Assembly (NCBI GenBank): GCA_965233585.1
Contig: CBDDTI010000451.1
Coordinates: 1-20,936 of the forward strand
From: a bacterium
Lineage (GTDB): Bacteria; SAR324; NAC60-12
DNA: 20,936 nucleotides
Direction of reading: 5' to 3'
The notes beneath the pieces were generated by a model. The model was not told the origin of the DNA. It made no database searches and saw nothing but the letters and a program-made list of their open reading frames with translations. A program made the translations under genes and the position numbers. This document shows, in pieces, positions 144 to 19,304 of the stretch; the first letter of the stretch is position 1, and each line of letters begins with the position of its first letter.

Positions 144-3100
144 GCCAGCTGCGGCTCCAGAAGCGGATGAAATGATCGTCGCCCTTGCGCTCAGATGGGC
201 CACGCTCCATGCGGTCACAGGTGGTGAGTGTGCTTTAAATTGGAGGATGGACCCAACAACTTGTCATTTGTATTGCGAAAATAGATCGGGATTCTAGGGT
301 CCCCTATGTGAGACAAATCGTACGGAGATGGTACCCAAAGAATTTGGTTGTTTTGGGGCAAAATAACCGAATTTGTGTGGTTCCCAGATCTGAAACTATC
401 CTTAACCCATACCCATACCAGCTCCCAGGTTGCCCCATGGCTGGCGCTTCTTTGATTTTGTAGAAGGTGCTTACCAACCATGCATGTCATAGGCTATAGA
501 AAATGACCATGGGGACATTGGCACAATCACTTAATGTGAGCTTACCAGCGTATAGTATCCCCCTCCTTATAATTAAAATACAAGATCCTTCAATATTTCC
601 TCCAGCCTTTGAGATTTAACATTTCAACAATATATCAACATCCATGATATCATAGTGATATCTCCTTTGTATCCCCAAACTGTTTGATCCCATCATGATG
701 CTCCAGGCCCAGTTGATCTCCATGGGCATCGGTGAGAATGCGGTGAGCATGGGCTCAGCCATGGGACTTGGGCCCTGTAAAAACTGTTTGGGGATGCACA
801 ATCTTCCTTGACATCCACTGAAGTTCACATATCATCCACGAAATCATGACTATTAAAAAGTGCAAAAGATCTATGAAATCAACATTTTTTAAAGGAATCC
901 CCGTTCCACGATTGGTCAAATGGTTCAACCCCCCAAAATTGTCCCCTCAATTTCAATGTCTTGCCAGGCCAAGCGTGCCAGCCTCGCCGTCAACAACTCG
1001 GGGGCCGAAGCAGCCTGCGCCTGGTGCCGGGGTGGGTGGTAGTGGACCCCATGCCTAAGTGTCCCAAGTGTCCCAAGAATGGTGGGGTTCATAGCAGGGT
1101 GACGTTTTGTGAGTCCCGTGCAGGTTCTTCGAACACAGTGAAGATCCAGACATCAATTTGCCGCCTGCTGCTGGACTGGCGGGCGATCGTCGGTTTTCAA
1201 ACGAGATTGATGCTGAAGTTTCCAGCGATTTTCGTCGCAGGAGCCCAACCTGCTGGTGACGCTGGGTCTGGATCTCAGCCGCAGCCAACAGTGACACCGG
1301 GGGATATCCAGAAACGCCCACAGGTTTGATCCTGAAGCAGTGTCCACGTTGTGCTCCATGGGCTTTGCAGAAGCCCATGTGCGAGCGGCCCTGAAGTCGT
1401 GCCTTGGCTGCTCTTGGACTTAGATTTGAGGCCCTCCAACAGATACATGCTATTTTGATCTATTCTGGATGGTGTGGTTTTGAGACTTGGAAAAAGTCTC
1501 CATGTTTCTTATACCGAACAAATCCATAGGAGGCATACAACCTCATAAATAACAGCTAAACAATTGTAATCATATATTATATATATATATAGAGATCTAT
1601 TTGCAAACAGAACATTCAATTCAGCGCACAAAGATGTACAAAAACAATGTTGTTTACCATGAAATGATAGGAATTGGAATCAATAAATGATCTGTCCCAA
1701 ACCTTGCCACCTGGCCCCATACCCAGGTGCATGAACAGTGTGGAGCGAGCGGCCGATTGGCCGGGGCCCCTGTGGCCAGGTGTCGCCCTGTGGGGTTCAA
1801 CGGTGTGGGGAAGTGAGTCATTCTGGTAGGGGCAACTCGTCCAAAGAAATGGCCCTTGTGCGGATTGGTGAATGATGAAGATGTGCACAGAATTTCAATT
1901 GCCGAATTTCGGCTAGATCGTAAAATTTAGTTGTCAAGTTGTGGACTGAGCATGTTTTGGCGCTTCAGGTTTTGGCTGCATGCCCAGCAAAAGCCAAATC
2001 ATATCTTCAACGCACTTCATCGCTCACATCTTCATGGCTCACATGGGAGGTTGCAGCAAAGAATCAACAGGTCCACATTTGGTTGATTCTTTTAGGTCAT
2101 TATGATTATCATGTCACCAGTTTTTGTTGGCAGCGTTCCAGCCCCAGATGGGTAGTTGAACATCATACTTGTATTTGCGACTGGGGCTTTATGTTGCCCT
2201 TTCAATGGTGCTTTGTACTGATGGGCTTGCAGTTCCATCCTACCCATGCAAAGAGCTTTGGGCATGTCCAAACCTATTGACAAGTCACCTTTAGGCTGGG
2301 TTTCCAGCGAACACCTACGGCGATGGAGATCCGGAATTCGTTGCTGATATTAGGCTGTAATTTTCAAGTCTCACATTGTTAGGCACTGCCACATACCCAA
2401 GCAATCCCCAAGGCAGGATGAACAAAACTGATATCGCCAACTGCCCGCTGTGCTCTGTGCCAACTGCCACCACGACGTCAACAACCGAAGGAACGAAGGT
2501 AGCATTGACCCATGGCCATTATCGATGGGTGTCCTACAATGACAAGCTGCGACAAGCTGCGACAATGCCAAAATATCTTTGCCATGGGACTTTTAAGGAC
2601 TTAATGCCTTCAATTGGAGTGGCACTTGCGTCGTCAAGAAGCACGCAGTCTACCTCCAGCGTGGCCAGATTGGCGGGTACCAAGAAAGACTGGTGCGATG
2701 GGTAGCCCATTGACATGGCCAACCGGCACTTCGCATCGCTCCTGCTTGTGCATTACTTGTCATTACTTCATCTTCGATAAATTATGTGTTTTGGAAGATT
2801 GTGGGTTCGATTGGTGCTAGGTATGAACAGCCATTGCTTCGTACTAGGGAAAGTTTCATTGATAATCACATTGATATTTGTAGCGGCAATCATCATCACC
2901 ACCACCACTACCAGCATCAGAATCAGCATCATCATCATCATCACCATCACCATCACCATCATCATCACCATCACCACTACCACCACCACTACCACCACCA
3001 CCATCATCCATCATCATCATCATGATCATGATCATGATCGTGGAAATCCTACAGGGACATGTCCATGAGCAACTGTTATTTGCGTGGTTGTCAGTACACC

Positions 3101-4670
3101 ATTTTGGTGTGGGTCCTTTCCCACGGCTTACCTCCCAAGGCTTTTCTCACACGCAGACGATCTGGATGCAGCCGTGGCTGCGGTGAATGGCAGTGGCACA
3201 GCGGTGGCTGGGCAAAACTCAGGGGATGACCGACTGATGACTGATTGCTGAAGGCTGGCAAGTTAAATCTTCAGAATCTACAGGGCTATATGTGGAAACC
3301 CGATCTCACCCTTGCTCCCTCGAGGGTCGGGATCTTTCCTGGCTAAACTTTAAACATACTTCCATTTTTTCACGAAGTGTGACATGAAGTTGGACATGGT
3401 TTTGCTCAAGAATTGAAGCGGACAAAACTCTCCATGGACAACGTGTCTTCCAGGGGTTGTTTCAACGCTATTTTGATCCATGGTGCAAGACAAAAAGTGG
3501 AAGTGTAGGCAACTCCTTGCCCATTCCATGAACCCCTAGAAATGTTCCCAAAAAACAACGATAAGACCAGCAAAAGATGGATTGTTTCCTGCCACCGTTG
3601 GGTTCAGTGCTCCCTGGCGCTCCAGGCCGGGCCGAGTCGAGTGGACAATGAAGATGGCGTGGGCGAGTGCCCAGCGATGATGCCTGTTGGAAGCTTCAAA
3701 CATCTTCAAACTAAAGATTGCATGAAAATGGATGAACTACTTGGCGTTTCATGGTTAGGCTGAATCTAGCATTGATTTTTTAAATGGGTTTACAGCAGCT
3801 GCCTACTGTTGATCTCAGCATTGCGAATTGGTGCAGTTTTCGAACAGAAGTGCGAGGTACGAACTCCTGGGGTTTGTGTCCCACATTGGAAAGCACACCT
3901 CTCATGGGCATTATGTTTGCCACATGCACTTCCCTCAGTCACTTGTTGTGGGACGCGGTATGTTAAATGCCTTTATGAAAGGCATCATGGCAACCCAACA
4001 GTGAAAGGTTCCAGCAAGGTTCCAGGACTGTTCCGGTTTTTCGGGGCGCCCGGCCCCAGAGACTGAAATGCAATAGATTCGCTGTTGGGAATAAGGATGG
4101 TTCAAAAAGACCGCAAGAAATAGTGATATTCATATGCCAATAATTACCCACGTTGTAGATCCCTTTGCGGCAACTGAGGCGACGGGGTGAGGGTGGCTCC
4201 TGGGTGATCTTTGATGATAGCAAGGCATGGGGTTGAGCCGCCGTCCCAAAAAATATGAATCAAAAAGTCTGCCAAGGTCGGATCTCCCGTAGCCCACAAA
4301 AGCCTAGCCTTCGATTAGCTCCCGCCAGGTGGCGAAATCCGAAGCTCCACCATTGGATTTGGGCCATCCCCTTAGAATGGAGAAAAAAAACATCCCTGAT
4401 GTGGACCTATTGAGCGGGCAAATTGTTGGCAGTTTCAACATCTTTCAAAGCTTGTTCATTTTGACTGGAAGCGATGCCAGTTTCAAGCAGTTGGCAAGCA
4501 TTTTGTTGGGAAACTATGTTCATTGGTTGGTGCTTACTACTTTGATTTGCCAGGTTATCTTTACCTCTATAGACGGAAGGACTTTTGGAGTTGCATTGCA
4601 CTTACTTGGCTTTGCTTTGAAAGTTTGGGAATTCAAAGCACAGCACCTTGAATGTTGAAAGGACGCCTGA
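144..4670 (+). CDS. UBP14: Ubiquitin carboxyl-terminal hydrolase of the USP5/USP13/UBP14 (isopeptidase T) type; 3' portion, multi-exon, 5' end outside the window
   Basis: Hand-spliced exons 144-180, 707-742, 968-1023, 1124-1173, 1241-1265 (end uncertain), 1324-1398, 1727-1759, 3140-3203 (end uncertain), 3626-3666, 3857-3925, 4179-4224, 4329-4362, 4554-4579, 4662-4670 join in frame. Translation: UBA1 (EMIVAQLISMGIGENAAKRASLAVNNSGAEAACAWFFEHSEDPDIN), UBA2 (FDPEAVSTLCSMGFAEAHVRAALKSCMNSVERAADWLFSH), His box (YELLGFVSHIGKHTSHGHYVCHM...WVIFDDSKV) and the typical C-terminus PPLDLGYLYLYRRKDA*. Two UBAs inserted before the His box are diagnostic of the USP5/UBP14 family. The last micro-exon (GA donor) is the least certain. 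Confidence 0.93.
2889..3038. repeat. (CAT/CAC)n trinucleotide microsatellite, ending in (CATGAT)n, inside the largest intron of the deubiquitinase gene
   Basis: About 150 bp of atc/acc/cac triplets seen directly. It accounts for the poly-His, poly-Thr and poly-Val/Met ORFs. Confidence 0.95.
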
Positions 4671-4942
4671 GCCTGAGCCAGAGACTAAACCTGAAAAATA
4701 TTTCCAAAAGCAAAAATTATAATTAATATAATGATTTTTTGATAAATATTAGAAGAAAAAACTAAACGACGGATGACCTGAGAGCGTACAGGAGCAAGGT
4801 ACTTAAATCTAAATATAAACAAAAACATTATAGATATAAGAAAAGGCAATGATAACGATGGAAAATGAAATATTTATTATTATCTTTGTGAAAGAGGCAA
4901 GATGTTATTAAAATGAAAGCTGAAGTACGAAGATAAATATTC

Positions 4943-5077
4943 GAAGGAATTTTAGAAAACAAACTTTTACAATATGGGCAGATGAAAAAGCAAAGATGGG
5001 AAGAATTAGAGAAGAGACAGAAATAAGATTAAAAAGAGAAAGTCTCAGAAAAAAAGATCTAGGTGCGCGAAAAGGTA
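4943..5077 (+). repeat. 5' fragment of a purine-rich interspersed repeat (…gaaggaattttagaa…gatggg aagaattagagaagag…aggtgcgcgaaaaggta), apparently interrupted at a TA
   Basis: GA-rich degenerate sequence. From memory it resembles an abundant Symbiodiniaceae interspersed repeat whose continuation appears at 8559-8642. Not verified by a search. Confidence 0.5.
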
Positions 5078-5619
5078 CTGGGTAGTAGACCTTACTCGTC
5101 TTATTTTACGAGAAGTCGTTTCGCAATCGTCGTGCCTATGGGAAGTGCTGTTAGATACCTCATTCTAGATTCGTTATATGTTTTGGGGTATGTTGAATTT
5201 TTGATGCAAATCGTAATGGTACGATGCTTTGGACTGGGATTAGGATTTATTTAGGGAATTTTTATTCCTATAGGTCGTTTATATAGATAGTTTACTATTA
5301 TTAGACAAAAAGATTGCTAAATATAAAAATAATTTAAATCCTTTTAATGACATAAAAAGGAATGCCTTATATAGATGTATGATAGGACGTATCCCGAAGG
5401 TTTTTATTTTATCCTGAAGATTAAAATTCGTATCGTAATACCTTATATCCGCCGGAAATTTTATTATATACTCTTTTTTATTGAAGGCTTGAGGTTAATG
5501 ATTTAAATGTTACTTATATGATGGTTTTGAATAGGAAGTATATTGTTTTTTTTAAATAATGTTTATCGGGAGAGAAACTTCTGTTTTGCGGGGATTTAAT
5601 AGAATAAAGTATAGAAAAG

Positions 5620-5730
5620 GGTAGATTAGAGTAGGGAGGAGTAGAGTAAAGAAGAATAGAATAAAGTGGAGGTGAGTAGAAAAAATAAAATAAAGAAGAT
5701 TAGGGTAAAATAGAGAATTTATAGGAAAGG
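5620..5730 (+). repeat. Degenerate (GAGTA/GAATA)n pentanucleotide simple repeat
   Basis: gtagattaga gtagggagga gtagagtaaa gaagaataga ataaag… seen directly. Confidence 0.6.
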
Positions 5731-5963
5731 AAAGTATATGAGTAGAAATTTATAGGTTTTGTTTTGTTTTTTGGATATGTTATTTTAAATTTTATTATTT
5801 AATAAAAATATAAATTTGGATTAATTATATTTTTTATAATAATTTAATTTTTTATTTATTATAAATTTAATATATTATATTTAGAATAATTCGGAATTTA
5901 TAGTATAATATTATTTAAAATTATTAGTTAATTATTATATTTTTTAATAAATATAGAAAAATG

Positions 5964-6756
5964 TTAAATTCGAGGTATTTGAGCTTATATTCGTGGTATT
6001 TGAGGCTGAAGATTTATGAATACTTAATATACCCGGTTACCGTTATTATAAATAATTAGACTAAAATATATTAAAGTAATAATATATTAAAGAGGTTGAA
6101 AAGATTTAAATACAAAATAATAATAGGAATTTTATTTTAAAAAAAAAAAAATTGAAAAACTTATTTTGCTAGGATTAAATTTGGATTTATGCGGGTTAAT
6201 TCTTTTTAAATATTTTTTAATAAGATAAATAAGGATAGTGTATTATTAAATGTACATATAAGTTATCTATATATACTTCCCGAAGACCAACCTTATTATT
6301 GTTAGTAACTCTAAATATTTGATGGCCTGTTGGGGGGCATGGTATTTGCCGGTTGCACCCGCCAGGTTTTGGATATTCTTAAGAGGACTTGTGGAAAAAG
6401 CAAGATAATGATTGGGTTCCGTGTAGATTACACCATGATGGGGTTTATTTACGAATTCCGTACAAGTAGCATGTACCGTGGTGGTGGGTGACTGGCTTGG
6501 TATTTTTGTTCAGTATTTGGCTTCTGAAGGTATAGAATTATATTTCTGTTAAATCAAAGGTAAATGTAACCAATGCTAGCTATCTGTGGGACCCTTAAAA
6601 TCGGAGCACATATAAGATACCTTGCCTGAAGATCTATGGACATATTCCCAAAAAATCGATGTATTTGCTTGGTTTTTCTTCCTCAAAAAGGTGTTGGCCA
6701 TGTGAGAAGTAACATAAGATATCAATAAATATTTGTAATTTTCCCAAAATACCGGT
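5964..6756 (+). repeat. Left arm of a ~0.8 kb long inverted repeat (pairs with 7461-8308)
   Basis: Aligns as reverse complement to 7461-8308 throughout, e.g. 6588 gggacccttaaaatcggagcaca vs 7606 tgtgctccgattttaagggtccc, and 6351 ggttgcacccgccaggttttggatattcttaagaggacttg vs the 7888-7928 region. Confidence 0.95.
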
Positions 6757-7467
6757 GGACATTTGGGATTCGAACTTCCCAAAAAAAAAACATGCACATG
6801 TTGGGAACTTCCTTAGAAAATCGATGCACGTATTGGGAACTTCCCCAAAACAAAATAGCGGCGCGCATGTTGAGAACTCCATCAGAAAATCTATGCAAAT
6901 ATTCGGAACTTCCCAGCAAAATGGATGCGCATGTTGTGAACTTCTGCCAGAAATTGATAGACACGTTGGTAACCCCCTCTATATATCGATGGACATCTAG
7001 TTGGCAATTTTCGTTCAAAAATGATGAACACGTAAGGAGTTTCCCCGGAAAATCGGTTTCCACATGTTGGGAACTTCCCCAAAAATAGCGGCGCACATAT
7101 TGGGAACTTCCGCGGAAAATCGATGCACATGTGGAACTTTCCGCGGAAAATCGATGCACATGTTGCGAACTTCCACCAAAAAATCAATGCACATTTCGGA
7201 ACGGCACCAAAAAATCAATGCACATTCTGGAACTTCCCAGAGAAGTCGATGCACCGGACGGGCTCGGGTGCATTGATTTTTGGGATTGACGCTGACCTGG
7301 TCCGAGGCGGAGTCTTTTCGCTATTTTTCGGTTTAAACCTATCTTGTGCATTGATTTTGGTTCACCACCCCTTAAACAAAATCAATGAATGCACCGGACG
7401 GCGGGGGGTGCATTGAAAACCATTGATTTTGAGAGGGGGGTGTTATTTTTATAATGGTGAACCGGTA
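6030..7467. mobile_element. Putative non-autonomous TIR DNA element (~1.44 kb), TA-flanked, with an internal tandem array
   Basis: The left end tacccggttaccgttattataaataa (6030) resembles the reverse complement of the right end ttatttttataatggtgaaccggta (7443-7467; rc taccggttcaccattataaaaataa). Both ends terminate in TA. No transposase ORF inside. Confidence 0.5.
6757..7255 (+). repeat. Tandem minisatellite, ~30-36 bp unit (aaaatcgatgcacatgttgggaacttccc-like), roughly 13-15 degenerate copies
   Basis: The cores gatgcaca..tgggaacttcc recur at about 6792, 6823, 6893, 6924, 7063, 7094, 7122, 7153, 7187 and 7218. Confidence 0.9.
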
Positions 7468-8308
7468 TTTTGGGGAAGTTCCAATGTTTATTGATATCTT
7501 TTGCTACTTCTCATATGGCCAACGCCTTTTTGAGGAAGAAAAACCCAGCAAGTACATCGATTTTTTGGGAATATGTCCATGGATCTTCAGGCAAGGTATC
7601 TTACATGTGCTCCGATTTTAAGGGTCCCACAGGTAGCTAGCATTGATTGTATTTACCTTTGATTTAACAAAAATATAATTCTATACCTTCAGAAGCCAAA
7701 TACTGAACAAAAATGCCAAGCCAGTCACCCACCACCACGGTACATGCTGCTTGTGCGGAATTCGTAGATGAACCCGTCATGGTGCAGTCAGTCTTTACGG
7801 AACCCAATCATGTAAGTAGATTTTTTGTTGAAAATTGGCAGGTACATCCTTATTTTTTTTTCAATTGATGTTATCTTGTTATTTCGACAAGTCCTCTTAA
7901 GAATATCCAAAACCTGGCGGGTGCAACCGGCAAGTGCCATGCCCCCCCACACCTAGGCCATCAAACACTTGGAGTTGCTGACAGTAGTGAGGTTGGTCTT
8001 CGGGGGATGGCTTGTATGCACTTGGTTTGATAATATACGGTTCTTATTTATCTTATTTAAAAGGAATTAACCCGCATGGATTCAAACCTGATCCTGACAA
8101 GGTAAATTCTTCCAATATTTTTTTTAAAATAAAATCCCTATTATTACCTTGGTGTTTGAACCTTTTCAACCTCTTTGGTGGACTATTGTTTTAGTCTATT
8201 TTAGTCCAATTACTTATAACACCGATAACCGGATGGAAGGTCGATATCAGAAACGGCAAATGTTCAGCCTCAAATACCACGAATATGGTTTCAGATACCT
8301 CGAATTTA
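7461..8308 (-). repeat. Right arm of the long inverted repeat; carries a ~60 bp segment (about 7811-7870) absent from the left arm
   Basis: Reverse-complement match to 5964-6756. Both arms end internally at ACCGGT (6751-6756 and 7461-7466). Confidence 0.95.
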
Positions 8309-8767
8309 AAATAAAAATAATTTACTAATTTTAAAGGATTTATTTTTTTATTTATATTAATTTTAATAATATTTTTTTTATATAATATAAAAATATAAAA
8401 ATTAAAATAATCGATATTATAATATTTAATTAATTTTTTATATATATTATGTAATATAATAATTTCTTAATATTGGGTAATTTTTGAATTTTATTTTATA
8501 TTATATGTTTTAATAAAATAATTTTATATTAAAAGAAATATAAAAAATTATCTATTTATAGGAAAATTCCGAAAAAAGGATTTTCTTCAATCTATGGCTC
8601 TAGAGGGTCGAAAATTACGATTGTTAAAGGTGGATGCGGAATTATTATTATATATAATAATATAAAATATATTTTTTAATTAAAAATATTAAAAAATAAA
8701 AAATATTTTTAGAAATGAAAATTTAATTTTAAATTAAAATTATTAATAATTATTTTATTTTGAGTAA

Positions 8768-9645
8768 TTCCCAATATAATATTTGTTATTTTCTTACCCG
8801 TATTTTTTTTGATATATGTATTTTTTTAAATTTTTACCAATTTATGAGGTATATTTTTTGGCATTCGATCTGGTATTTTTTTATATATTTGACAAATATT
8901 TCGAATTTATGTTGGAATATTTATAATGTTCCACTTGATATCTCAATACTTATTTTAGGTGGTATACCTCCATATATTTAATTTAACATAATTTCTAATT
9001 TTTTATTTAAAATTTGATTTTCTGACATCCTATTTAATATATTTTTTGATATTTTGTCTGGCATATTTTCTGGTATTCTATTTAAGATGGTTTCTGACAT
9101 TTTATTTGGTATCGCTTCTGACATTCTACCTGGTATATTTTTGGCACATATTCTGACATATTTTTTGCTATTTTATTTAATATCTATTTGTCGTATTTTT
9201 GGCATATCATTTGATATATTTCCTGAAATTTATTTGACAAATATTTTGATATTTTATAGAAAATATTTTGAAATATTTTATTTGATATTTTTTATGGCAT
9301 ACGATTTGGAATCTCTTCTGGCATTCTATCTGGCATATCCTCTATTTTTTTTGGTATATCATGAGACAAATTTTCTCGGATTTTATCTCGTATATTTTTC
9401 CGTGTTCTTTCTGATATTCTATTTTGGTATATTTTCTGGAATTCTATTGAGGTCCAGTTGTTCGCATTGACTTGGGGAGGTCTTAGGGTGTGGTCCAGTA
9501 GTGCGTATTCAGCTTCGAAGTAGGCAGGGATGGTAAAAAAGAAGAACACGGACCAGGAGGAGGAGGGAAAAAGAAAAGGAGGACACGGGGGAGGAGGAGC
9601 ACATCTCTGATAAAATTTAATAACCCTCAGCCGGCAGGCAAGGAA
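8768..9645 (+). mobile_element. Interspersed repeat element with an internal 12-bp-period minisatellite (tctggcat/tctgacat units), a gaggtccag motif region and a GGA-rich tail
   Basis: ctgacat/ctggcat units recur at about 9020-9445, followed by gaggtccag, ggtccagtagtgcg, (gga)n and ataaaatttaataaccctcagccggcaggcaaggaa. The element starts ttccc and ends aggaa (possible very short terminal inversion). The minisatellite is seen directly; assignment to a common Symbiodiniaceae repeat family is from recollection only. Confidence 0.65.
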
Positions 9646-9989
9646 TTGAGCATTTTAGTTTTTTTGCAATGGCGATATCGAAAAAGGGTATGTTATTGTT
9701 TTGTCTCGAAAGTAATAATGGAAAATTTTGCTGGATTTTAGAGTATGGTTGGAATAAGACATTTTTTAAAAAATTATCCAGTAACATTTCAAAAAAATGT
9801 AGATATTCTTTTGCTATATGTCAGATTTCTTTTAAAATTTGTAATTTCGATAAATGAAAAAATTTCGTAGAAAATTTACAGAAGCAAGTAAACAATACCT
9901 TTGTGACAACCTTGACATACCAAACCACACCGCTTTCATTAATTATACCACAATTTCCCACAACGACGAGTATGCCAAATTTTTTCCCC

Positions 9990-11990
9990 ATGCTACATCC
10001 TGAATTTTCCCTTATCCAAAAAACCGCGGGAGTGGTGGCTGGCGCTTTGTCTCCACCTCCTTGGGAACCCTTCTAGCAATTCAAAAAAGCATCCTGTGTC
10101 CCAATTGGAGTAAAATTCAAACGCTGTGTCAGTGAAGTTGAAACAAAAGCCTGTAAAATCGGAAAAATAATTTATTTTGTTATTTCCATGGAAAGTTATT
10201 GTTTTTTGTGGAGTCGGTTGCGGTCGCAAGAAATGGCTCTGTCAGTTTATTCCCACTCGTTTTTGAATATTTTAAAATGCTTGAAAAAGGATCCTTTTGG
10301 AACAAACCCTCAACTAAAACAAATAAAAATCAAAAATTTTGCAATGCAGCTAATTGGCAGAAATGGTAATGGAATTCCTAGGTGACATTAGAAGAAATTG
10401 ATAAGACAGACGCAAAATATTATTGAACCACCAGAGACAGAAAAGACATACAGAAAAATATTTCAGACACCAACACAAAAGAAAACACAAGCACAACACG
10501 AAGCCACAAATGTTACCCACAAGCTTATTTGATTACATGACGTGGTGACTTTTATTCAGCTGCTTTTTAGCCAGCACTTTTTTTCGGTGCCCAGAAACAA
10601 CATTTCTCGCTTATTTTGTGGTGAACATTCTTTTTTTCTTTTCCGTTGAATACGCATCGTCCCCTGGCTTCGCTGGTTCAATGTTTTCAAGACGCGCTTC
10701 CATCCTCGGTATGCCTACCCGTCTGGAAACCAAAAAACGTTTTCCTAAAGGAATTGGACGGAAAACATCTTAGTTTCAAACCCAGCAAAACCGAAGACCC
10801 GAAACACGGCAATGATTTCTGACTAGGAACGATTTTTTTCGATTCATCAGAAATAATTATATTTTAGTCGACGCTGAAAAAGCCGCAATGCGGCATTTGC
10901 AGCAAACAAGAAAAACAAATGTCGTGTTTTCTTGTGCGTAGATATTACTCTGCATGAACTAGAGGAAGTGAATGATCGAAAGATTTTCTTTGCAGTTGTA
11001 ATCGTGGTGCGAGCACACACTGTGGTGTAATTTATTGACTTTAGACCAAAAAAAGCAAAGTAGTTTGTTGTAGTGTGCCCGACTAATTTTTGTTGCATTG
11101 AGGTCTTGCAAGTGTGGGTTTAGATATTTTTGGTCACGACAAAAACAGTGTCCATGTGAGCAATTTGTTTAAAGGCAACACGGAGTCAGTCACAAACCAA
11201 AAGTCAACGCAAGGAAAAAAATGAATTCGTAGTAAAAAAAATTAAATTCCTGAAGGAGATCTTTATTTTTTTTTCTCTTGCCATTTTCGAAGTTATTGGA
11301 TTGTGAAAATATAAATTAAAGAATTGGAACCACACTGCAAACATAACTGCGACTTCAACTTCACCACAGGAATTACACAACATTTTACAACCACAACCTA
11401 CAACAAGGACCCCTCTACAACGTTATCAGTAGCAGTGCAGGAGTCTTTTCAACAGGAAACCTCGTGGAAACGTTGGCTTTCTTGCACTTGTGAATGGCAA
11501 CGCGGATTCAATTTTTGTCTGCAAGAAGAGTGGTTTTTTGACCAAAAATTCTTCAAATATGTTTATTTTCTCTTGACATCACTTCAGGGTGTTCATGGAT
11601 TACCATCAGGCCTTTCATTTTGCCATTGAACATTTGTACATAGATTGGTTTTTCCATTTATAAAAGGTCGATCGACATTTTTTTTCAGGCAACGTGCAAA
11701 AAGGGTATATCCCTTTTTTTCTTCTGGATTCCTGCTCTAATCAACACCACAGGAATGGTTGCCACAGGAAATGGTCTGCAGCAGAAAGTCTTTGCTGAAA
11801 CTTGCTGTATCATTGACCAACAATGTCAAAAATAGTTTCCATGGTACAGTACCAAAAAGCAAAGGAAATTCTGAGGCCGCAACCGATTGATGTGACATTC
11901 TGTGATACGCAAATGTTTTCAACTTGGCAGGGAAACTTGAATCTTCCACATGGTTGAAGTGCATATTGGAATGAATTATTATCAATAAAA
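9990..11990 (-). pseudogene. Degenerate coding relic, possibly a Mutator-like (MULE) DDE transposase, broken by stops and frameshifts
   Basis: A higher-complexity island inside AT-rich DNA with minus-strand protein-like fragments: GYTLFARCLKK…LMVIHEH (possible Zn-binding N-terminal part), QKLVGHTTTNYFAFFGL…RTTI…RSFTSS…FFLFAANAAL, and FYSNWDTGCFFELLEGFP…QSASHH. The order is compatible with a MULE, but catalytic residues cannot be identified with certainty. Confidence 0.35.
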
Positions 11991-12849
11991 TTTTTTGAAA
12001 AAAAATTCGACTTTCGGTGCGACAATTGTCAGACGTCCAAAATTCCTGGATGTGTGTCCGGTGCAGCTAGGTGGCCTGATTAGTTAGTTACTGGGAAAGA
12101 ATGGGCAAATCAAAATACGCATGGAAATCTGGGCAATTCATTTGGGCAATTTCAAACCACACCCATCAGGCCAATACAAACAGTGTTTGTTTCCAAACAG
12201 AGCTGAAAAAAATTAGCTCGTTGCTGAAAAGGCTTGTGTGTCAACCAAATGCCATAGAAAGATTCGTATCCAAGAGCTTCGCTGTCTCAACGGCGAATGA
12301 AACATGATTCAACGCATTTCTGTGAATAATCGACGCAGGCGAATCCAAAAACTTAACCGAGGCGAATCATTCGTACAAAATGAACGATTTTTCATTCTTT
12401 AATCCATTGTACGTAGTTGATTGGGAGCAAGCTTTTCCGTATCCAGGAGGCACAGCGATACACATCCAGTAAGGATGAAATTTCAATCCCTGACCCCTAA
12501 TGCCTGGAAAAAAAGAAAGTCCTTGTGCGCGACTTTATAAAGAATCAATATGTGCACCTTGGCAACTAGCCCGCTGCAATGTCTGTGTTTCATGTGCAAA
12601 GATTTGGAACAAAGTCAGAAAAGGGCCCAATTCAGAATATCATCTCCGGCAGGACATTTTACGTATTGAGAGTCTGCATGCTTTTTTTCACATGAAGAAA
12701 CCTGAAGCAAACCTTGTTCCTTCCCATCAGTTGCGACAAGATTTCCAATGTAAATTTCTTTTTAAATGGAAGGTAACAAGAAATTTGATCTGCGATTCGA
12801 ACGTATATATGTATGGGTTAAATTGATGGAAATATTTGTCAAGACATGG

Positions 12850-14330
12850 AAGATATCTAATTCTTCTTTAAAAAAAATAAATTTCCTATTTTTTTCTATA
12901 AATAAGGAACATTTGGAATTTATATAATTCAAGAATCATAAAACGACAATTTTTTTTTTTTGAAAAAGTAGAGGAATAAATATAATTTAAATATATATAT
13001 AAAACAAAAATTTATAAATAAATATTTTTTTTCAAATATAAATATTTAATATTATATTTTCAAAATACCAGGGCAAGATTTTCCAATCCCAATAATTTTG
13101 AAATAATTAGATATACCTCTATAAATATCGAATATATCGATAAAAAAATAATCAATTAAATAAATTTCAGAAAATTATTTTATTTTAAAATAATTCCAAT
13201 AAGGGTAAGTAAAATTTATATGCCGGAAAATTTCATAATATTTTTTTTAATTCAATAATTAAAAAATACATTATAATTAGGTTATATTTATAAAGTATTA
13301 TTTCGGTATATATATATATTTTTTAATATATTTTTTATTTAAAATTAAAATCAAAATAAAATATATAATAAATAATAAATAACATTTAATTTTTTTTAAA
13401 ACAATTATTTTTAATAATTAATATAAAATTATTTTTATTTAATTTTTATATTAAAATTATTTATTAATTTAATAAATTTTAATATATTATACGAAATAAT
13501 ACCTCGGTTAAGGACAAATTATATTTTATAATTTAAATCCATATATTTAATAATATATAATTTTTTTCTTTATAATTAAAAAATACATATATTATTTTGG
13601 AAAATAAATACCTTTATTCGACGTCAAAAAAAAGAAAATCCATTATAATTATTCCCAATATATTATAATTCCTATTCAAATAATTAGAAAAAAAGTAAAA
13701 TTAATAACCACAATCAAAAAAAAATCAAATAGTAAATATCATATTTACGAAAATTATTTCCTATAAATATAAAATTTCAAAAATTAATATATTTCGAAAA
13801 ATTAATAGCAAAAATTCGACCCAATAACATACAAGAAAAATGTTATTTAAAAGCAAGGATCAACCCCAAATACTTTAAAATAATTATTTTACTAATAAAA
13901 TAAACATTAACAAGCAAAAAACGGGCATTATTTCCAATTAACGATATTTCCATAACGATACTTCGGGTTACCTTAGAACCTTCGGGTAATCTTAAGGCCT
14001 TAAAGTCTCCTTTAATAAATTTTAGGATTATATAAATAGGATCTTAAATCGATTTACCGAGTTCTAAAAAAAAATCAAATTTATAATATAAAAATATTTT
14101 TTAATATTAAAAATATTATTTTATGTAATTCTAGGATAGTAATTTCAGCTAGGTTTCCATCCTTCCCTTTACTTCGTAAAATAAAATCAAAGTAGTAGTC
14201 CATCAGGAGCTATTTTTTTATAATATAATAAAAAACGAATTAAATAAATAAAAAAAAAAAATAAAAAAAATCATAAAAAACTAAAATATACGAAGAAAAA
14301 CTAGGATAAAGAAGTAAAAATAACTAAAAA
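12850..14330. other. Extremely AT-rich degenerate tract (eroded repeat DNA) with residual CpG-containing words
   Basis: Long A/T runs. CG words (tcga, acga, ttcgg, ccgg) survive while CA/TG are scarce. No ORF of 60 aa or more in the track. Confidence 0.85.
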
Positions 14331-14344
14331 ATTAAAAGGAACCT

Positions 14345-14525
14345 AAATAAACTGAGACAAGCAAAGATGAACAACCGAGAAGAGTTAAGAAGAGCTAAGA
14401 TAAGTTAAGAAAATGAGCTGAGGAAAAGATGACTTAAGTAAGATGAGCTGCTGCGATAAGCTAAGCAGGGGTCAAATAAGCTCTGAAGAATTAAGAAGCT
14501 GTGAGAAGAGCTGAGCTGAGCTGGT
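14345..14525 (+). repeat. Degenerate gagaagagct/gatgagctga 10-bp-period repeat
   Basis: gaga agagttaaga agagctaaga taagttaaga aaatgagctg… gagaagag ctgagctgag ctgg seen directly. Confidence 0.75.
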
Positions 14526-14627
14526 TAAGGTCCTATAGAAAGAGCACAATCCTTTCTGATATTCCTTTTAGAGAGAGCAATCCTTTCTGATATGTTATTT
14601 TTTGATGATTCATTAACTTTAATTTAA

Positions 14628-17600
14628 TTATAAACCAGTATCTTCGGCCTTTGCGCAAGTTGATTTGTCACATTCAAGTTGCCAAACCGAAATACAATTT
14701 CATGCAAGCCAATGCAAAGGTTACCATCCACATCAGCATGGGGCACTGCAGCGATCTGAAGCTGATGGCAAGCATAAATGAGCAACATCTAGGCTCCTGA
14801 CCGCTTCGCCCAACCTTTCACTAATCCACACCAATAAGCACATGTTTAAAAGCAAACAGAGACACGTGAGATTGACGCGTTGAACGGACAATTTCTATGC
14901 GGCCAAATCAAGAAGCGCTCTTGCTGAATCGCCAAGAACGATGTGAAAACCACGAGAAGAAACACTCCTCACATCTCCTCACTGGAAGAGTGACATGCGG
15001 TGACATGTGCCCTTGCCTTTGCAGAGCCGCATCGCGGTCCAAGCCGTCTAACAAGGCAGGAAGTAGAACTGCAGACACCTGGCGCTTCCAAACAAATTAA
15101 GCACCTGAAACGTGACACTCTGCAACACCATGTTCAATCTGTGCAAATTGGCAAACTGAAGTGGAAAAATAGCAAGCTTTCAACAAGAAACTTTCAAAAC
15201 GTTGAAACCATTACCCACTGAGCATCGCACGTAGAGCGCTACACCAATGCCTGTGATCAATGGAAGAGTGGCCTGGCGAATCTGCAGGAAGCTGTGAATC
15301 CTTCGAGGCTAGGAATGCCACGGTGCACGGTGCCCACGGTTCCCCATGGCCTCGTAACTGGCGCCGCCCGCCAGCTCCACGGCCAGGACGACTGAGGTGA
15401 TGGGCACCTGAGCCGATGCCCTGTTGGTCACAAATTGGACTTTTGATGAAACGTGTTTAGGATTGTTTAATATTGTTTAGTATTGTTTAGTATTGTTTAA
15501 TATTGTTTAATATTGTTTAGTTGTTTTGGTTGAGAAATTGATATGTGTTTAATTGATGTTTTCAATTCTGTCTAGTCATGGTTTGTATCAAGTGCTTTCT
15601 TCAGTGTAAAATGCGAAAATCCGTCGTTTAGTGAGGCCGAAAGCAACTCAGTCGCCCGCACTACAGTTCGCAGCCAGCATAGATGCCATGCCAACAACAA
15701 TATAAGTTGTGGCTGCCTGTGAAAGCTGTGCCCCAGACCACAGGACCATCATGGACCATCCAAAACGTCGAGGATTTCATTCTCCAATCACAATGCAGGA
15801 GTTTTTAACAGATGGGCTGCGAGGCAATCCGCTTTCGCCAAGTTGCCGAGTGGGCGATGGCAGCCCCCTGAAGTCGACAGCTCGCGACTCACCAAGGCTC
15901 AACGTCCCCAACTTGCATGTGGCCACATGTCAGGACAGTGCCCCAAAACAGTTTCCTTTTGTCAGGTGAGCCCTGCTTTATTTCACTGAACTTTTATGCA
16001 AGAATTTCCACTTTGGAACAAGATGAACAAGACTTCAACATCGCCAATTCGTTGCCTCTATCATGCGACCCAGCGCGCCACCAAGGCAGGCTCCGATGTA
16101 AATGGACGGAGCGAAGGTTCCTGTCATCGATCCAATCTCTTCTGTTTACTGTCGGATTCTCTGGCAGCCAAGTTCGGCTGGTGGACATGCGGCTGGTGAG
16201 CTGGCTTGAGTGGAAATGAATCAATGGAAACGAATTAGCCTGCCTCCAACTAGACCACTGACTGAAGAGAAGGCAGTGGAAAAAATCTTGAGCACCTTGA
16301 GTGACTGGAAACCAGATGGATAACACATAATAAAACATGATAAAACTACAATGCTGAACCCGATTGGGAGCCCAAGCCATTAGGGCCAGCAGCGGCGCTG
16401 CACCGAAGAGGCCAATGGAGCCACGGTTCTGGCGGTGCAGCACCAGAGCACCAAATCTGCAAATAAAATCACAAAAATTCTCATGTTTCTCATCCAATCC
16501 TGCAGCTTGACGAACTCACCGATTCTTCCGGCCATGGGCCATTGGCCATCTTACTTCACCTTGTTCCTTTGTACTTCCCTAATCACTTCCATTCTTATCC
16601 TGCCTCGATCAACGGTGCTAGCGACAGGTTGGATGCTGCTTCACCCAATGGCTCAGAGGCATCGCGCAGCACCTCATTCACTGCCTTGGCGATGCAACGT
16701 CTTAAGGGTCAGGAAAGACCTAGAGACACGTGGGAAACACACGGGCTTGAGCTGCAAAAAAAATCATTATTCAATTTCATGGAAAATGAACCTTTTGCCA
16801 AACATCTTCTTATCCATTTCCAGGGTCAATCTGCTTGTATTGGACATGTTCCTCAATTAGGTGCCATGAAACTGGAGGTTTCGCTTAGGAGATCTGATCA
16901 TCTTCATCATCTTCTAATCAACACCTGCTGTTTTAGGGTCAACAACTTGCCTTGGCTCCCAAACGCCGAAGCCATCGAACTGGACACGGGCGCGCGTGAG
17001 CAAAGAGATGAGGACCGTCACGAGCGCACCTGCCTCAGTGCAGGTGACACACGGTGATTGATCCGACCGATCCAAGTGATCCAACCTGCTTTGCATTGTG
17101 AGGTTGTACCAGGTTGACTCTTTGATGTCCTCATACAGCAAAAACATAACACGTTTTTTTTCCAGAAATCACACTTGGACATGAGAAAAGGGCAAAAAGC
17201 CGCACTTTCCAAACACTTCAAATGCTGCTGTCACCTGGGAAATCTGGGCTCCGCACGATGGGTAGCCAAATGTTAGGTACTCCTTGATCTGTCACCCAGG
17301 TGATGATATCGCGGCTTGAAGCCACGATCTTCTTGTAGCCATAGGCAATCATTCCTGGCTGGTGGTATCAGAGCTTTACTGTTTGAACAAATATGGCAGA
17401 TACCAAAAAATTGCAGTTGCCGAACGTTGTAATCTTATTTGAGGTGGGAAGCAGCGTTTTGGAAGACGTTTCGAGCTGCGGAAGTTCTTACAACTGAACT
17501 TCAAGCCTGTGAGGACACCCAAAACGATGAAGAAGAACAACTCCTTCCGAGGTTAACACAGAAACTACAGCCGTAGCCACAAAATCAAAGGTGTGAAGGG

Positions 17601-18410
17601 AGCTCGCGCAAGCTGTGCAAACATCTCAAGCTGGACAGTGACTAGCGTATAGCGTGACTAGTCCAAATGTTGCCTCACCTGAGGGCCCAGCGCCGTTCCC
17701 TCCGTCCCAGGAGAAGTTCGTGGTTTTGATGGCGGGGCCGCCCTTAGTCAAAATGGGACTTGGGCCATGTGGCCATGTGGCCATGCTGTTTTATGTTGAC
17801 TCCATGGCCTCTGGGTACCGCGCCGGTAGAAAGGATTGAACCACAGCAGCGCTCACTGCTGCTGCAAGCAGCCTGGACAGTTTATGAAACAAGCGTCATC
17901 AAGTGTCATGGTGGACAACCAAACTGCGTGGGTATGGTGATTTCGAGACAAAGCTGGGCAGAATGCTGCACCCTTATTGCCCATGATATCCATGGGGCTG
18001 GAAAACACCATTCAACTCCCATTGCTCCCGTTGCTTCATTTTCTCACCTTGTTGTGAGATCCAGGGAGTTGTCGTCACCTGGTCTAACGACCTGCACAGC
18101 GGTTGGACCTCACCAAGCTTTGCACTTACTCTCAGTGAGCCGATTACGATCCAATCTGCAGCAAGCCTATCATTTTTATATATTTTTGTTCATTTTTGAG
18201 GGCAACTCAACGAAATAGGGTCATTTGCCTGCTGGTGCCTTGCCTCTGAAGCAAAGAAAATACCCGCAATGGGTGCATTGAAACCTCAAACCGCCCAGGT
18301 CAACGACATCGGAGCTGCGGGAAATGCTATGCGAAATTCTCAGCTTCACACCTGCTGCAACGCCGGCAGCAGCGCCAGAGGCCAGAAGAGCATCTGGATT
18401 TTGATTTATC
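14628..18410 (-). CDS. CLC-family chloride channel/transporter, prokaryote-like (plant CLC-e/CLC-f type), helices G to Q; no CBS domains; helices A-F not found in the window
   Basis: Hand-spliced exons 18410-18352, 18284-18244, 18091-18048, 17872-17824, 17742-17692, 17543-17507, 17354-17257, 17033-16965, 16684-16604, 16428-16378, 16295-16244, 16120-16056, 15867-15847, 15716-15660, 15407-15351, 15272-15231, 15078-15017, 14814-14787, 14648-14628 join in frame. Motifs: LLASGAAAGVAAGFNAPIAGIFFASEVV, ELFFFIVLGVLTG, LKIFSTAFSSVSGLVGGTFAPSIYIGACLG, YIVVGMASMLAANCSVPITSVVLAVELAG, ATLPLI. The last two exons, 15867-15847 and the start of 16428-16378 are less certain. Confidence 0.9.
15454..15520 (+). 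repeat. 10-bp tandem repeat (tattgtttag/tattgtttaa) x ~7 in a CLC intron
   Basis: Seen directly. Confidence 0.9.
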
Positions 18411-19304
18411 CTCCGCCCCACAACTGTCTGCGATGAAGTCATGCAATGAAAGGAAGATGTTTGAACTGATTGAATAGCTCAAATAGCAGCTAACATTTAT
18501 ACTGGTTAGATATTTCCAACTGGAGTGCTTTTAAGGTGAAATAGAGCCGCGAATGTCAGGCAAAAACACAATGGTCACGCAGCGAGCACACTGGAGAAAT
18601 CAACGGAGACTTTCTCATCAATGAAATTATGAACTGTGAATGATGTAAATCAACAATTGATAATGATAATGAAACAAAACATAATCAACCATAATGCAAA
18701 CTGCATGTTTCAACAAAGGAAATGCGTAAAATAAACTGAACAAATAGACATCAATCATCAATTGCCAAAACAGCAAACTATACAACACCTTCAGAAAAAA
18801 ACACTGAACAGTAGGAAAACAGACAAGACACACCGAAAAATGCGGTGGAAGCAAATAGTTCGGACATCTAGGCAGTTTTTTTCTTGAGACATTTTGGCCT
18901 AAACCGCGAGAAGAAAAGGACAACTGCGGATTTTTTTGAAACGAAAGGAAAACACGAACACCGAGGACATAGTTACTTAGGTGTGCAAATCAGCAAACCC
19001 AATTCTCACGCGACAACTGTGACAAACAATCCAAATACCATGAATATTGCAATGCCGTTTTTCATCTTGGCATCATGCCCAGACCCACGAAAGCATCACA
19101 CTAGCAATGTCCGGCCAATAAAGAATTCAAACAATCCCCAGAACTTTTTGTTTCACTTATTTTCTTCACATCCTCATTTTCACCCTTTCTCCCCTATTTC
19201 CCGAGGTGTCTTTTTGAGTTTTTTTTAGCTGCGCCCCAAAAAAATGGGGAAAATCCGCCATTTTTTCGGAGACGGGAAAACCCCCACAGAACTGAGCTCT
19301 TCAC

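Follow-up and report, generated by a model that had tools for sequence, protein, structure and literature searches.

The window comprises an entire contig of 20,936 b, which carries two genes and nothing else recognisable as a gene. To judge from its sequence, this contig is Symbiodiniaceae DNA that was wrongly binned with a bacterial assembly. The first gene (1..4651, + strand) is the 3' part of a gene for a USP5/UBP14-like deubiquitinase (UBP) and was delineated by means of the Pfam family UCH, homologues, a tblastn exon map, splice sites and ORF frames. The UCH match scored 24.4 bits (cut-off 23.9), and tblastn against Symbiodiniaceae proteins yielded 12 collinear exon matches. The UBP-like exons span 148 to 4651 on the + strand and lie approximately at 148-183, 707-745, 968-1024, 1125-1175, 1328-1402, 1731-1760, 3141-3215, 3626-3667, 3858-3926, 4180-4224, 4329-4364 and 4553-4651. 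The closest proteins found in the homologue search are those of Effrenium, Breviolum and Symbiodinium. Splice sites, read by eye, contain GC, GA or GT as donors and an AG followed by G as acceptor in 11 of 11 cases. Proteins and splice sites thus bear out the dinoflagellate source that had been proposed in a preceding, sequence-only reading of this DNA.

The same reading had placed the deubiquitinase stop at 4670. The last conserved motif of the UBP, GYLYLYRRKD, is encoded at 4553-4582, and the in-frame stop codon is the TGA at 4649-4651, to which the position was corrected. The TGA at 4668-4670 was rejected as UBP stop, because it belongs to another frame and is preceded by the earlier stop. 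The introns of this gene (3,850 b in total) have a GC content of 46.2%, and therefore show the ordinary composition that had been ascribed to them.

The second gene (14624..20936, - strand) codes for a CLC-like channel or transporter, and its 5' part lies off the contig. Exons were located at 16038-16145, ~17502-17528 and ~18244-18282, and a candidate stop at 14624-14626. The exon 16038-16145 reached 23.1 bits for Voltage_CLC, which is under the cut-off of 24.8; weak collinear tblastn matches to CLC were found at 18282-18244, 17528-17502 and 16133-16068. Exon 16038-16145 is the final CLC exon with family support. Further downstream, a - strand ORF (14627-14788) ends at the candidate stop. The CLC stop that had been put at about 14628 coincides with the end of this ORF, but neither homologue nor Pfam searches yielded a match that would back its coding status. 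The convergence of the two flanking genes holds, as the UBP-like exons are on the + strand and the CLC-like exons on the - strand.

Composition of the spacer

In 200-b windows, the spacer between the genes (4651-14627) has a mean GC content of 0.311, compared to 0.478 in the UBP gene and 0.467 in the CLC-like gene. The minimum is 0.035 in the spacer, and 0.30 and 0.28 in the two genes. On the UBP side, GC drops from 43% (4600-4699) to 29% (4650-4749); on the CLC side, values of 29-31% (14550-14699) give way to 44-50% from 14650 onward. The GC change near the UBP end and the presumed CLC end is therefore as abrupt as had been claimed. The description of the spacer as a GC trough of about 10 kb is correct with respect to the low mean, but the trough is not a single block. 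It is a mosaic of three deep AT islands, which are parted by stretches of 39-45% GC.

The UBP stop is followed by a zone that is purine-rich on the + strand (4652..5260; 33% GC, G-C skew +0.32) and probably holds the 3' UTR of the UBP gene. Within this zone lies a 140-b fragment (4941-5077) of a 1.4-kb repeat family, which ends at 5077 even if the alignment tolerates C>T changes. AT island 1 (5261..6300) has a GC content of 21%, a CpG o/e of 1.73, a CpA+TpG o/e of 0.49 and a (CpA+TpG)/(ApC+GpT) ratio of 0.68. It contains 60 C and 160 G (skew +0.45, p 1e-11) and overlaps the outer half of arm A of an inverted repeat. AT island 2 (8001..9000) has 21% GC, locally 14%, and a CpG o/e of 1.61. A T-rich copy of a 48-b tandem-repeat family (9017..9495, + strand; 25% GC, AT skew -0.37) is located next to it. 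The 3.3 kb from 9471 to 12780 are unique DNA without a recognisable gene (38.6% GC, CpG o/e 0.79, TpA o/e 0.49), and their dinucleotide pattern is ordinary. AT island 3 (12781..14330; 17% GC, locally 10%, CpG o/e 2.29) carries a negative G-C skew, which amounts to -0.22 over 13251-14250 (102 C vs 65 G, p 0.005). The last zone (14331..14627), which adjoins the presumed CLC end, is purine-rich on the + strand, with 35% GC and a skew of +0.28.

In the three islands, CpG o/e is 1.6-2.3, CpA+TpG o/e 0.49-0.75 and TpA/ApT 0.90-1.08; the corresponding values of the two genes are 0.57-0.67, 1.35-1.39 and 0.47-0.48. TRF detected short AT tandem repeats inside the islands. None of the 44 spacer ORFs of at least 60 aa exceeded a Pfam cut-off, and searches of the spacer for Rfam families and tRNAs found none.

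C-to-T erosion of the resident repeats

The inverted repeat comprises 2.3 kb in total. Arm A (5961..6756, + strand) has 17-28% GC in its outer half (to ~6330) and 45-46% in its inner part. In the core (6792..7254), a unit of 31-32 b is repeated in tandem about 14 times. Arm B (7461..8312, - strand) is less eroded (29-51% GC) and carries, in comparison with arm A, an insertion of 49 b. Further copies of this repeat were found neither in the bin nor in two public collections. Comparing the arms over 863 aligned columns, with a polarity set solely arm against arm, gave 69 GC>AT transitions towards arm A and 19 in the reverse direction (p 8e-8), besides 47 transversions. Among the GC>AT changes between the arms, 69 of 84 are transitions. 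The changes cluster at 6008-6329, adjoining island 1, and GC falls stepwise along arm A into this island (0.46, 0.28, 0.17-0.20). Over their inner 350 b, the two arms share 90.7% identity and differ by few transitions.

The mutated fraction depends on the sequence context. It is 0.29 for CpA (31/108), 0.25 for CpT (19/75), 0.17 for CpC (17/98) and 0.05 for CpG (2/42); the difference between CpG and all other contexts (67/281) is significant (Fisher p 0.004). With regard to the 5' neighbour, 27/84 C were mutated after A, 12/54 after G, 14/85 after T and 16/100 after C. Furthermore, the changes are biased towards one strand. In arm A, 50 C>T stand against 19 G>A (p 2e-4), and reading arm B on the + strand gave 14 C>T and 5 G>A. 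As the arms are inverted and yet both are biased on the + strand, the bias goes with the genomic strand and not with the element.

Eroded copies of two repeat families showed the same type of change. For the 48-b tandem family, GC-richer copies exist on contigs C108 and C615. The copy of the window differs from the C108 copies by 40 C>T, 7-15 G>A and 8-10 reverse transitions, and from C615 by 17 C>T, 4 G>A and 3 reverse ones. For the 1.4-kb family, which has more than 20 copies, polarity was assigned by comparing the top hit per contig (21 contigs) with a consensus. Fifteen of these 21 best-per-contig copies match the consensus at an identity of 88% or more. In the three most eroded ones, GC>AT and AT>GC transitions number 17/1 (C616, flanking GC 0.20), 18/3 (C477) and 21/3 (C114), which sums up to 56 vs 7. 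Sparing of CpG is weak in these eroded copies (9/55 vs 47/194) and absent from pooled repeat pairs that differ by at least 10 GC points (0.240 vs 0.262); the latter set consists of 58 non-independent pairs, and its labelling as richer and poorer inherently favours GC>AT.

The inverted-repeat arms and the eroded copies of two families thus corroborate the earlier claim of C>T erosion of resident repeats. With inner arms of 90.7% identity and 15 of 21 family copies barely mutated, homology is not the determinant of this erosion, in line with what had been suspected. The repeats are neither mutated over their full length nor in every copy.

Origin of the AT islands

On balance, we favour the reading that this convergent Symbiodiniaceae spacer is a mosaic of decayed repeats and unique DNA, whose islands have arisen largely by strand-biased, CpG-sparing C-to-T change. 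Unmethylated cytosines, which are those outside the CpG context that is methylated in this family, might have been deaminated, probably by an enzyme, in DNA that was single-stranded or otherwise exposed, and the damage would stay where no gene is under selection. The spacer would then be one instance of the published GC dip at the ends of convergent gene arrays, and erosion would affect the non-genic DNA of this genome in general, rather than being a proven effect of convergence. We put forward only tentatively the wider proposal that Symbiodiniaceae possess a strand-coordinated deaminating activity, which spares methylated CpG, turns unselected or repeat DNA into islands of 80-90% AT and in this way causes the hitherto unexplained GC dips at dinoTAD boundaries.

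Comparable islands occur elsewhere in the bin, where about 28 other contigs have the same architecture. Outside the window, 43 of 70 islands of at least 500 b have a significant G-C skew; across all 73 islands, CpG o/e has a median of 1.44. As selection of the bin was for a GC content of about 40%, dinoflagellate contigs with AT islands are over-represented in it.

The islands could also have been AT-rich from birth, as satellites or low-complexity insertions, in which case the C-to-T changes of neighbouring repeats would reflect the usual decay that old DNA undergoes when it is not under selection. No GC-richer ancestor or relative was found for the greater part of the three islands, and similar low-complexity matches rich in AT recur across many contigs. 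Because of the short AT tandem repeats detected by TRF, part of the islands may indeed have been AT-rich from the start. As an explanation of the whole, we consider this origin unlikely. It does not account for the stepwise fall in GC along one and the same repeat arm as this arm enters island 1, for the depletion of C on one strand of this island, or for the recognisable eroded family copy on C616; moreover, CpG o/e exceeds 1 in 63% of the 73 islands, which is not required of plain AT-rich satellites. Even less probable is a homology-dependent genome defence akin to RIP, which would recognise duplicated DNA and mutate its cytosines. The affected element is an inverted duplication, CpA is its most mutated context, and the divergence of the repeats is dominated by C-to-T, both between the arms and in the 1.4-kb family; the TpA/ApT values of the islands and the (CpA+TpG)/(ApC+GpT) ratio of island 1 also conform to such a process. 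However, RIP-like mutation is made unlikely by the inner arms and most family copies, which are intact: erosion is found in the outer parts adjoining the islands, and mutation dependent on duplication, along the whole length and in all copies, was not observed. CpT and CpC are mutated nearly as much as CpA, and in the part of the literature that was covered, 'repeat-induced point mutation' and 'Symbiodiniaceae' co-occur only for fungal Starships. Least of all do we expect an assembly or binning artefact, by which dinoflagellate genes were fused to unrelated AT-rich DNA. The contig belongs to a chimeric bin, and ten runs from other studies contain just 0.61-0.64 of the words sampled from 1-10000; but four runs contain 0.89-0.98 of them, covering gene, islands and inverted repeat. 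The inverted repeat crosses island edges with graded composition, and the architecture recurs on the other contigs mentioned above.

A stronger competitor, which we nevertheless regard as doubtful, states that the spacer is a true domain boundary of two long opposing arrays and that this position itself causes the C-to-T erosion. Converging transcription or replication forks would expose the non-template (or lagging-template) strand, and the mutated strand would hence switch at the centre. The two genes converge, and the skew changes its sign between them, from positive at 4651-6300, towards the UBP gene, to negative at 13251-14250, towards the CLC-like gene; in either half, the strand poor in C thus coincides with the sense strand of the closer gene. 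The + strand bias common to both inverted arms likewise points to a positional effect. With a k-mer model from whose training the window was excluded, a genome-wide excess of G+T was detected on the sense strand, and in the islands this excess has the same sign and is stronger. Published GC dips occur only at convergent sites, and the domains are transcription-dependent (PMC8110479, PMC8110477).

Against this, the zone by the CLC end has a sign opposite to the expected one, and the other contigs lend no clear support to the erosion by convergent position that the sequence-only reading had raised as a possibility. The left-positive, right-negative pattern was found in 18/28 other internal troughs (p 0.18), the sign combinations being +/- in 8, -/+ in 3, +/+ in 6 and -/- in 11. 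The orientation of flanking genes was deduced with a k-mer predictor, which assigned 17 of 21 independent labels correctly. At 13 troughs on other contigs it predicted convergent flanks for 4, divergent flanks for 3 and tandem flanks for 6, which is no significant convergent excess over random sites (18.8% convergent, 17.1% divergent, 64.1% tandem). Island skew agreed with the predicted sense strand of the left flank in 14/27 cases and of the right flank in 16/25. Since the accuracy of this predictor is about 80%, these negative orientation results are weak.

Comparison with known systems

In ascomycetes, RIP turns repeats into AT-rich blocks by dense C-to-T mutation, with TpA going up and CpA going down in strand-coordinated single events; the machinery is of the RID/DIM-2 type and acts before meiosis. 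The spacer resembles RIP products and AT-rich isochores in its dense C-to-T changes, in AT-rich blocks derived from repeats, in TpA gain and CpA loss, and in the strand coordination of the changes. It differs from them in the independence of erosion from homology, in the nearly equal use of CpT, CpC and CpA, and in its non-fungal host.

Deamination of single-stranded DNA by AID/APOBEC enzymes is similar in that C-to-T changes affect one strand across hundreds of bases and the methylated context, CpG, is spared. Unlike AID/APOBEC, the erosion described here has no preference for TC or CC. A bias that follows element orientation, as in APOBEC editing of cDNA, was not found, because both arms are biased on the same genomic strand. 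For Symbiodinium, a CG methylation of about 70% is reported, and an APOBEC-like editing to which methylation would be an obstacle has been suggested (de Mendoza et al. 2018, PMC5890265); the deaminating activity tentatively proposed above would be this editing.

Base J marks convergent strand-switch regions of kinetoplastids, and 5-hmU is enriched at dinoTAD boundaries (PMC11071213, PMC11572971). The spacer would be akin to these cases as a zone of termination where opposing arrays meet and where the DNA has a special, thymine-related state. Islands rich in T would provide 5-hmU with more substrate, and a link between AT islands and this base may therefore exist. If the erosion is general, the enrichment of 5-hmU that antibodies reveal at boundaries may in part mirror T density, and a DNA-editing activity hitherto unknown would be indicated for organisms of which both chromatin and genome defence are little understood. 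If it is not, the locus is another convergent spacer of decayed repeats.

A GC dip at the ends of convergent gene arrays has already been published. In Symbiodiniaceae, it amounts to about 10% and is confined to convergent sites (Nand et al. 2021, PMC8110479), a finding with which the dip described here agrees. The main texts of this study and of Marinov et al. 2021 (PMC8110477) give no explanation for the dip, and the terms 'deamination', 'C to T', 'skew' and 'R-loop' are absent from them; PMC8110479 raises the question whether the boundary is 'encoded in the genome'. The spacer adds evidence at the level of bases that a one-strand, CpG-avoiding C-to-T erosion accounts for a dip of this kind at least in part, and it thus offers a concrete mutational hypothesis. 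Boundaries of dinoTADs lie where two long unidirectional arrays end, and their Hi-C insulation disappears when transcription is blocked. By gene orientation and GC, on a contig that holds two genes, the locus is a candidate for such a boundary. According to its nearest proteins and splice sites it belongs to a dinoflagellate nuclear genome; as at the boundaries described in PMC8110479 and PMC8110477, the flanking genes converge (UBP on +, CLC-like on -) and GC declines sharply and locally (0.311 vs 0.467-0.478 in the genes). With islands of 10-21% GC, the local dip is far deeper here than the published averages.

Origin of the contig and its two converging genes

The window represents all of one contig (C451; 20,936 b) from an assembly of 12,006,139 b and 747 contigs that has been deposited as prokaryotic. 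ORFs of at least 150 aa cover 79–87% of the five longest contigs (0.14–1.07 Mb), less than 10% of 331 of the 747 contigs, and 13.8% of the window. The GC content of all contigs ranges from 34 to 46%, with 39.4% for the window. The assembly is a chimera, namely a composition bin collecting whatever sat near 40% GC. It consists of approximately 3 Mb of dense bacterial contigs (C745–C747, C295, C729) and approximately 9 Mb of low-coding eukaryotic contigs; the dinoflagellate-like share is at least 1.75 Mb, and the mixture is hidden by the completeness and contamination figures. For comparisons beyond the window, the bin offered 71 dinoflagellate-like contigs with a total of 1.75 Mb. Dinoflagellate contigs reach about 40% GC only if they contain AT-rich stretches, and the sample is therefore skewed towards such contigs.

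The + strand gene encodes a USP5/UBP14-like deubiquitinase (UBP). Among 77 stop-to-stop ORFs of at least 60 aa in the flanks, only the one with a UCH exon at 3813–4001 passed its Pfam cut-off (24.4 versus 23.9 bits), and searching the assembly for the family recovered the same exon. With this exon as query, nine of ten candidates had E-values of 0.001 or better; those named were from Effrenium voratum, Symbiodinium sp. CCMP2592 and Breviolum ("symbB"). A tblastn search with five of those proteins yielded 12 short collinear + strand exons between 148 and approximately 4651. The last conserved motif GYLYLYRRKD is located at 4553–4582 and its frame closes at TGA 4649–4651. The TGA at 4668–4670, which the sequence-only reading had taken as the stop, belongs to another frame and is preceded by an earlier stop. 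When exon ends were slid by 1–3 b by eye, the donors of the 11 introns were GC (six), GT (three), GA (one) and unresolved (one), and all 11 acceptors, likewise judged by eye, were AG followed by G. GC, GT and GA donors combined with such acceptors are the splice pattern described for dinoflagellates in PMC11572971.

The - strand gene is weakly identified as CLC-like, with less support than UBP. Its Voltage_CLC match at 16038–16145 scored 23.1 bits (E = 4.8e-5), which is below the cut-off of 24.8, and 18.3 bits in another search. A bacterial CLC from the same bin aligns collinearly over short stretches at 18282–18244, 17528–17502 and 16133–16068. The - strand orientation of the gene and the origin of the contig at family level (Symbiodiniaceae) were thereby confirmed. 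Two word-index searches and a full HMMER search of a representative library gave no stop for this gene; of the 15 - strand ORFs of 14627–16145, Pfam matched only 16038–16145. The previously proposed position of about 14628 does coincide with the end of a - strand ORF (14627–14788, stop 14624–14626), but this ORF has no homology support.

Composition of the trough and erosion of its repeats

The GC content is 47–50% in both genes, drops from 43% (4600–4699) to 29% (4650–4749) within approximately 50–100 b of the UBP stop, and is back at 44–50% from 14650 onward. In 200-b windows, the mean GC of the trough (4651–14627) is 0.311 compared to 0.478 and 0.467 in the genes, and the lowest values are 0.035 compared to 0.30 and 0.28. 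The UBP introns have 46.2% GC over 3,850 b. These values confirm an abrupt trough that starts near the UBP stop and an ordinary composition of the UBP introns, as the sequence-only reading had proposed. In this coral-symbiont dinoflagellate, the DNA between the two genes is thus a true convergent spacer, and its GC trough is both deep and patchy.

The trough is a mosaic and not uniform. From the UBP side, it comprises a purine-rich zone (4652–5260, 33% GC), AT island 1 (5261–6300, 21% GC), an inverted repeat with arm A (5961–6756) and arm B (7461–8312) around a core of approximately 14 copies of a 31–32-b unit, AT island 2 (8001–9000, 21% GC), a T-rich tandem-repeat copy (9017–9495), 3.3 kb of unique DNA (38.6% GC), AT island 3 (12781–14330, 17% GC and locally 10%), and a further purine-rich zone (14331–14627). 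None of its 44 ORFs of at least 60 aa scored above a Pfam cut-off, and neither an Rfam family nor a tRNA was found. The observed/expected ratios in the islands are 1.6–2.3 for CpG and 0.49–0.75 for CpA+TpG, versus 0.57–0.67 and 1.35–1.39 in the genes; TpA/ApT is 0.90–1.08 in the islands and 0.47–0.48 in the genes. This pattern agrees with an origin of the AT-richness from C>T changes. Islands of contig C615 (6951–8100, 14526–15800, 48951–50400, 62876–64400) show the opposite of this type (CpG approximately 0.1–0.45, CpA+TpG approximately 1.5–1.8). Low-GC patches in these contigs are therefore not all of one origin.

The 2.3-kb inverted repeat (5961–8312; arms of approximately 800–850 b) is unique in the bin, and a 24-b probe detected no other copy in the public collections metagenome_contigs and genome_contigs. 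A palindrome at this position between converging genes could form a hairpin or cruciform. The inner arms (6408–6756 versus 7811–7461) are 90.7% identical and the outer arms (5961–6408 versus 8312–7871) 75.2%. The comparison of arm A with arm B, which was made without an outgroup, revealed in 863 aligned columns 69 transitions with T/A in arm A and C/G in arm B, 19 in the reverse direction (p = 8e-8), and 47 transversions. Transitions account for 69 of the 84 GC-to-AT differences. Their excess is located at 6008–6329, where arm A enters island 1; here, the GC content is 0.17–0.28 in arm A and 0.29–0.42 in arm B, and further in it is 0.45–0.51. The fraction of changed cytosines, sorted by 3' neighbour, was 31/108 for CpA, 19/75 for CpT, 17/98 for CpC, and 2/42 for CpG (CpG versus the rest, Fisher p = 0.004). 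In terms of the + strand, arm A contains 50 C>T and 19 G>A changes (p = 2e-4) and arm B 14 and 5. As both inverted arms are biased in the same way on the + strand, the bias is a property of the genomic strand and not of the element. In a runs test for strand-coordinated clustering, C>T and G>A changes in arm A formed 23 runs compared to 28.5 expected (p = 0.066).

Two further families allowed similar comparisons. Relative to GC-richer copies on C108, the T-rich copy at 9017–9495 shows 40 C>T and 7–15 G>A changes, and relative to C615 it shows 17 and 4; reverse transitions against the C108 and C615 copies number 3–10. A non-coding family of approximately 1.4 kb, with a sharply defined 5' end, a leader rich in purines and tandem units of approximately 120 b in its interior, occurs in more than 20 copies on dinoflagellate-like contigs, frequently close to AT islands (full copies are found, for example, at C449:17663–19090 and C548:17203–15684). 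The window contains only a 140-b fragment of it (4941–5077), and polarity can be read from the family consensus. Of the best matches taken from 21 contigs, one per contig, 15 carry few transitions and share at least 88% identity with the consensus. In the three copies with the heaviest erosion, GC>AT versus AT>GC transitions number 17 versus 1, 18 versus 3, and 21 versus 3. The copy on C616 lies in AT-rich DNA with a flanking GC of 0.20. The inverted repeat, the T-rich family and the 1.4-kb family thus support the suggested C>T erosion of resident repeats for the comparable parts, and C-to-T change would have made these parts of the trough AT-rich.

The sparing of CpG is weak in the three eroded copies of the 1.4-kb family (9/55 versus 47/194) and absent in pooled repeat pairs that are at least 10 GC points apart (0.240 versus 0.262 in 58 pairs that are not independent). 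Baseline pairs show a higher rate of change at CpG than at other C (0.092 versus 0.062), so that CpG, at least, is not what drives the additional erosion. A C>T-tolerant Smith-Waterman alignment to four full copies of the 1.4-kb family, performed to find an ancestor of island 1, ended at 5077 (scores 130–147, shuffled means 62–72). For most of the three islands a GC-richer relative was not found, and part of them may therefore never have been GC-normal. A tandem repeat of approximately 70 b in a UBP intron (2889–3041), which has relatives on C524 and C635, lies in a region of 47% GC; this intronic repeat is therefore not eroded.

Homology, position and convergence

A homology-guided process resembling repeat-induced point mutation would be expected to mutate the whole duplicated length and all copies. 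Such a trigger is unlikely, because the inner arms have hardly changed and the family with more than 20 members is unmutated in most of its copies; moreover, erosion is graded by distance from an island. These observations support the earlier proposal that repeat homology does not set off the erosion. The alternative, namely a dependence on convergent position, fits the polarity of the G-C skew within the window. On the UBP side, the skew is +0.32 at 4651–5260 and +0.45 at 5261–6300 (p = 1e-11); on the CLC side, it is -0.22 at 13251–14250 (p = 0.005), with the exception of 14331–14627 (+0.28). Positive after UBP and negative in 13251–14250, it means that in each half the nearer gene has a sense strand poor in C. 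Converging forks would give the same pattern, and transcription and replication are thus not distinguishable.

On other contigs, the left-hand skew was more positive than the right-hand one in 18 of 28 internal troughs (p = 0.18), with sign combinations +/- in 8, -/+ in 3, +/+ in 6, and -/- in 11. For gene orientation, a self-trained codon model was discarded, as it marked GC-rich patches equally on both strands, and a Pfam search of 150 of the 432 flank ORFs found above the cut-off only two overlapping SprT-like ORFs. These ORFs (C477:15146–16707, locus positions 497–2058 of L008) lie on the + strand in different frames, both carry the SprT-like zinc-protease motif (28.6–28.7 bits), and the pair resembles a gene that has been frameshifted or duplicated. 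A 4-mer sense/antisense model, seeded from the two genes of the window and then re-estimated with these excluded, picked up an excess of G+T on the sense strand and called the strand correctly at 17 of 21 independent Pfam-labelled loci, matches on the bacterial contigs C295, C745, C746 and C747 being left out. This excess (top 4-mers GTGT, TGTG, TGTT) was seen on the 71 dinoflagellate-like and 17 other eukaryotic contigs, and can by itself serve to orient genes on similar contigs that lack annotation.

According to this predictor, the 13 troughs outside the window with both flanks called are convergent in 4, divergent in 3, and tandem in 6 cases, which does not differ significantly from 1,093 random sites (18.8% convergent, 17.1% divergent, 64.1% tandem). 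Strand-biased erosion is common in the genome sampled: the G-C skew is significant in 43 of 70 islands of at least 500 b outside the window. The sign of this skew corresponded to the sense strand predicted for the left flank in 14/27 cases and for the right flank in 16/25 (non-significant). Hence, neither skew nor orientation tests demonstrated that erosion is linked to junctions of the convergent type or to the way in which adjacent genes point. Since the predictor is approximately 80% accurate and the sample is biased, these negatives are weak. Convergence itself as the cause of erosion is unsupported on these noisy tests.

Relation to dinoflagellate domain boundaries

Marinov et al. present a model of transcription-induced supercoiling (PMC8110477), and the terms "skew", "GC content" and "R-loop" are absent from its main text. 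In 2024, Marinov et al. described an enrichment of 5-hmU, a low accessibility and the presence of Maverick elements near boundaries of dinoTADs, the Hi-C domains of dinoflagellates (PMC11071213). Mavericks are reported to be enriched at dinoTAD edges in Breviolum. In the assembly, protein-primed polB (Polinton-type) had 12 matches and none on the 71 dinoflagellate-like contigs; the contigs with matches (C315, C58, C164, C382, C401, C435, C193, C47, C530, C426, C322, C581) are outside the dinoflagellate-like composition class. De Mendoza et al. reported that CG methylation is approximately 70% and that unmethylated CG is almost absent, and speculated that methylation could shield retroelement cDNA from APOBEC-like deamination (PMC5890265). 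A tentative and rather doubtful reading is that Symbiodiniaceae possess an activity that deaminates cytosines in a strand-coordinated manner and spares methyl-CpG, and that the GC dips at boundaries would be made by its relics.

Among the papers listed in literature searches and the main texts consulted, no published link between the GC dip and C>T erosion was found; one of the papers listed dealt with fungal Starships. "Deamination", "C to T", "skew" and "R-loop" are absent from the main text of Nand et al. (PMC8110479), who suggested that the boundary is possibly "encoded in the genome". The same article describes unidirectional gene blocks, Hi-C boundaries at the points of their convergence, and a drop in GC that is approximately 6% at boundaries and approximately 10% at, and exclusively at, convergent sites; a PNAS paper of 2024 repeats the dip (PMC11572971). 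The GC dip at convergent sites is therefore already known, and the window adds another example.
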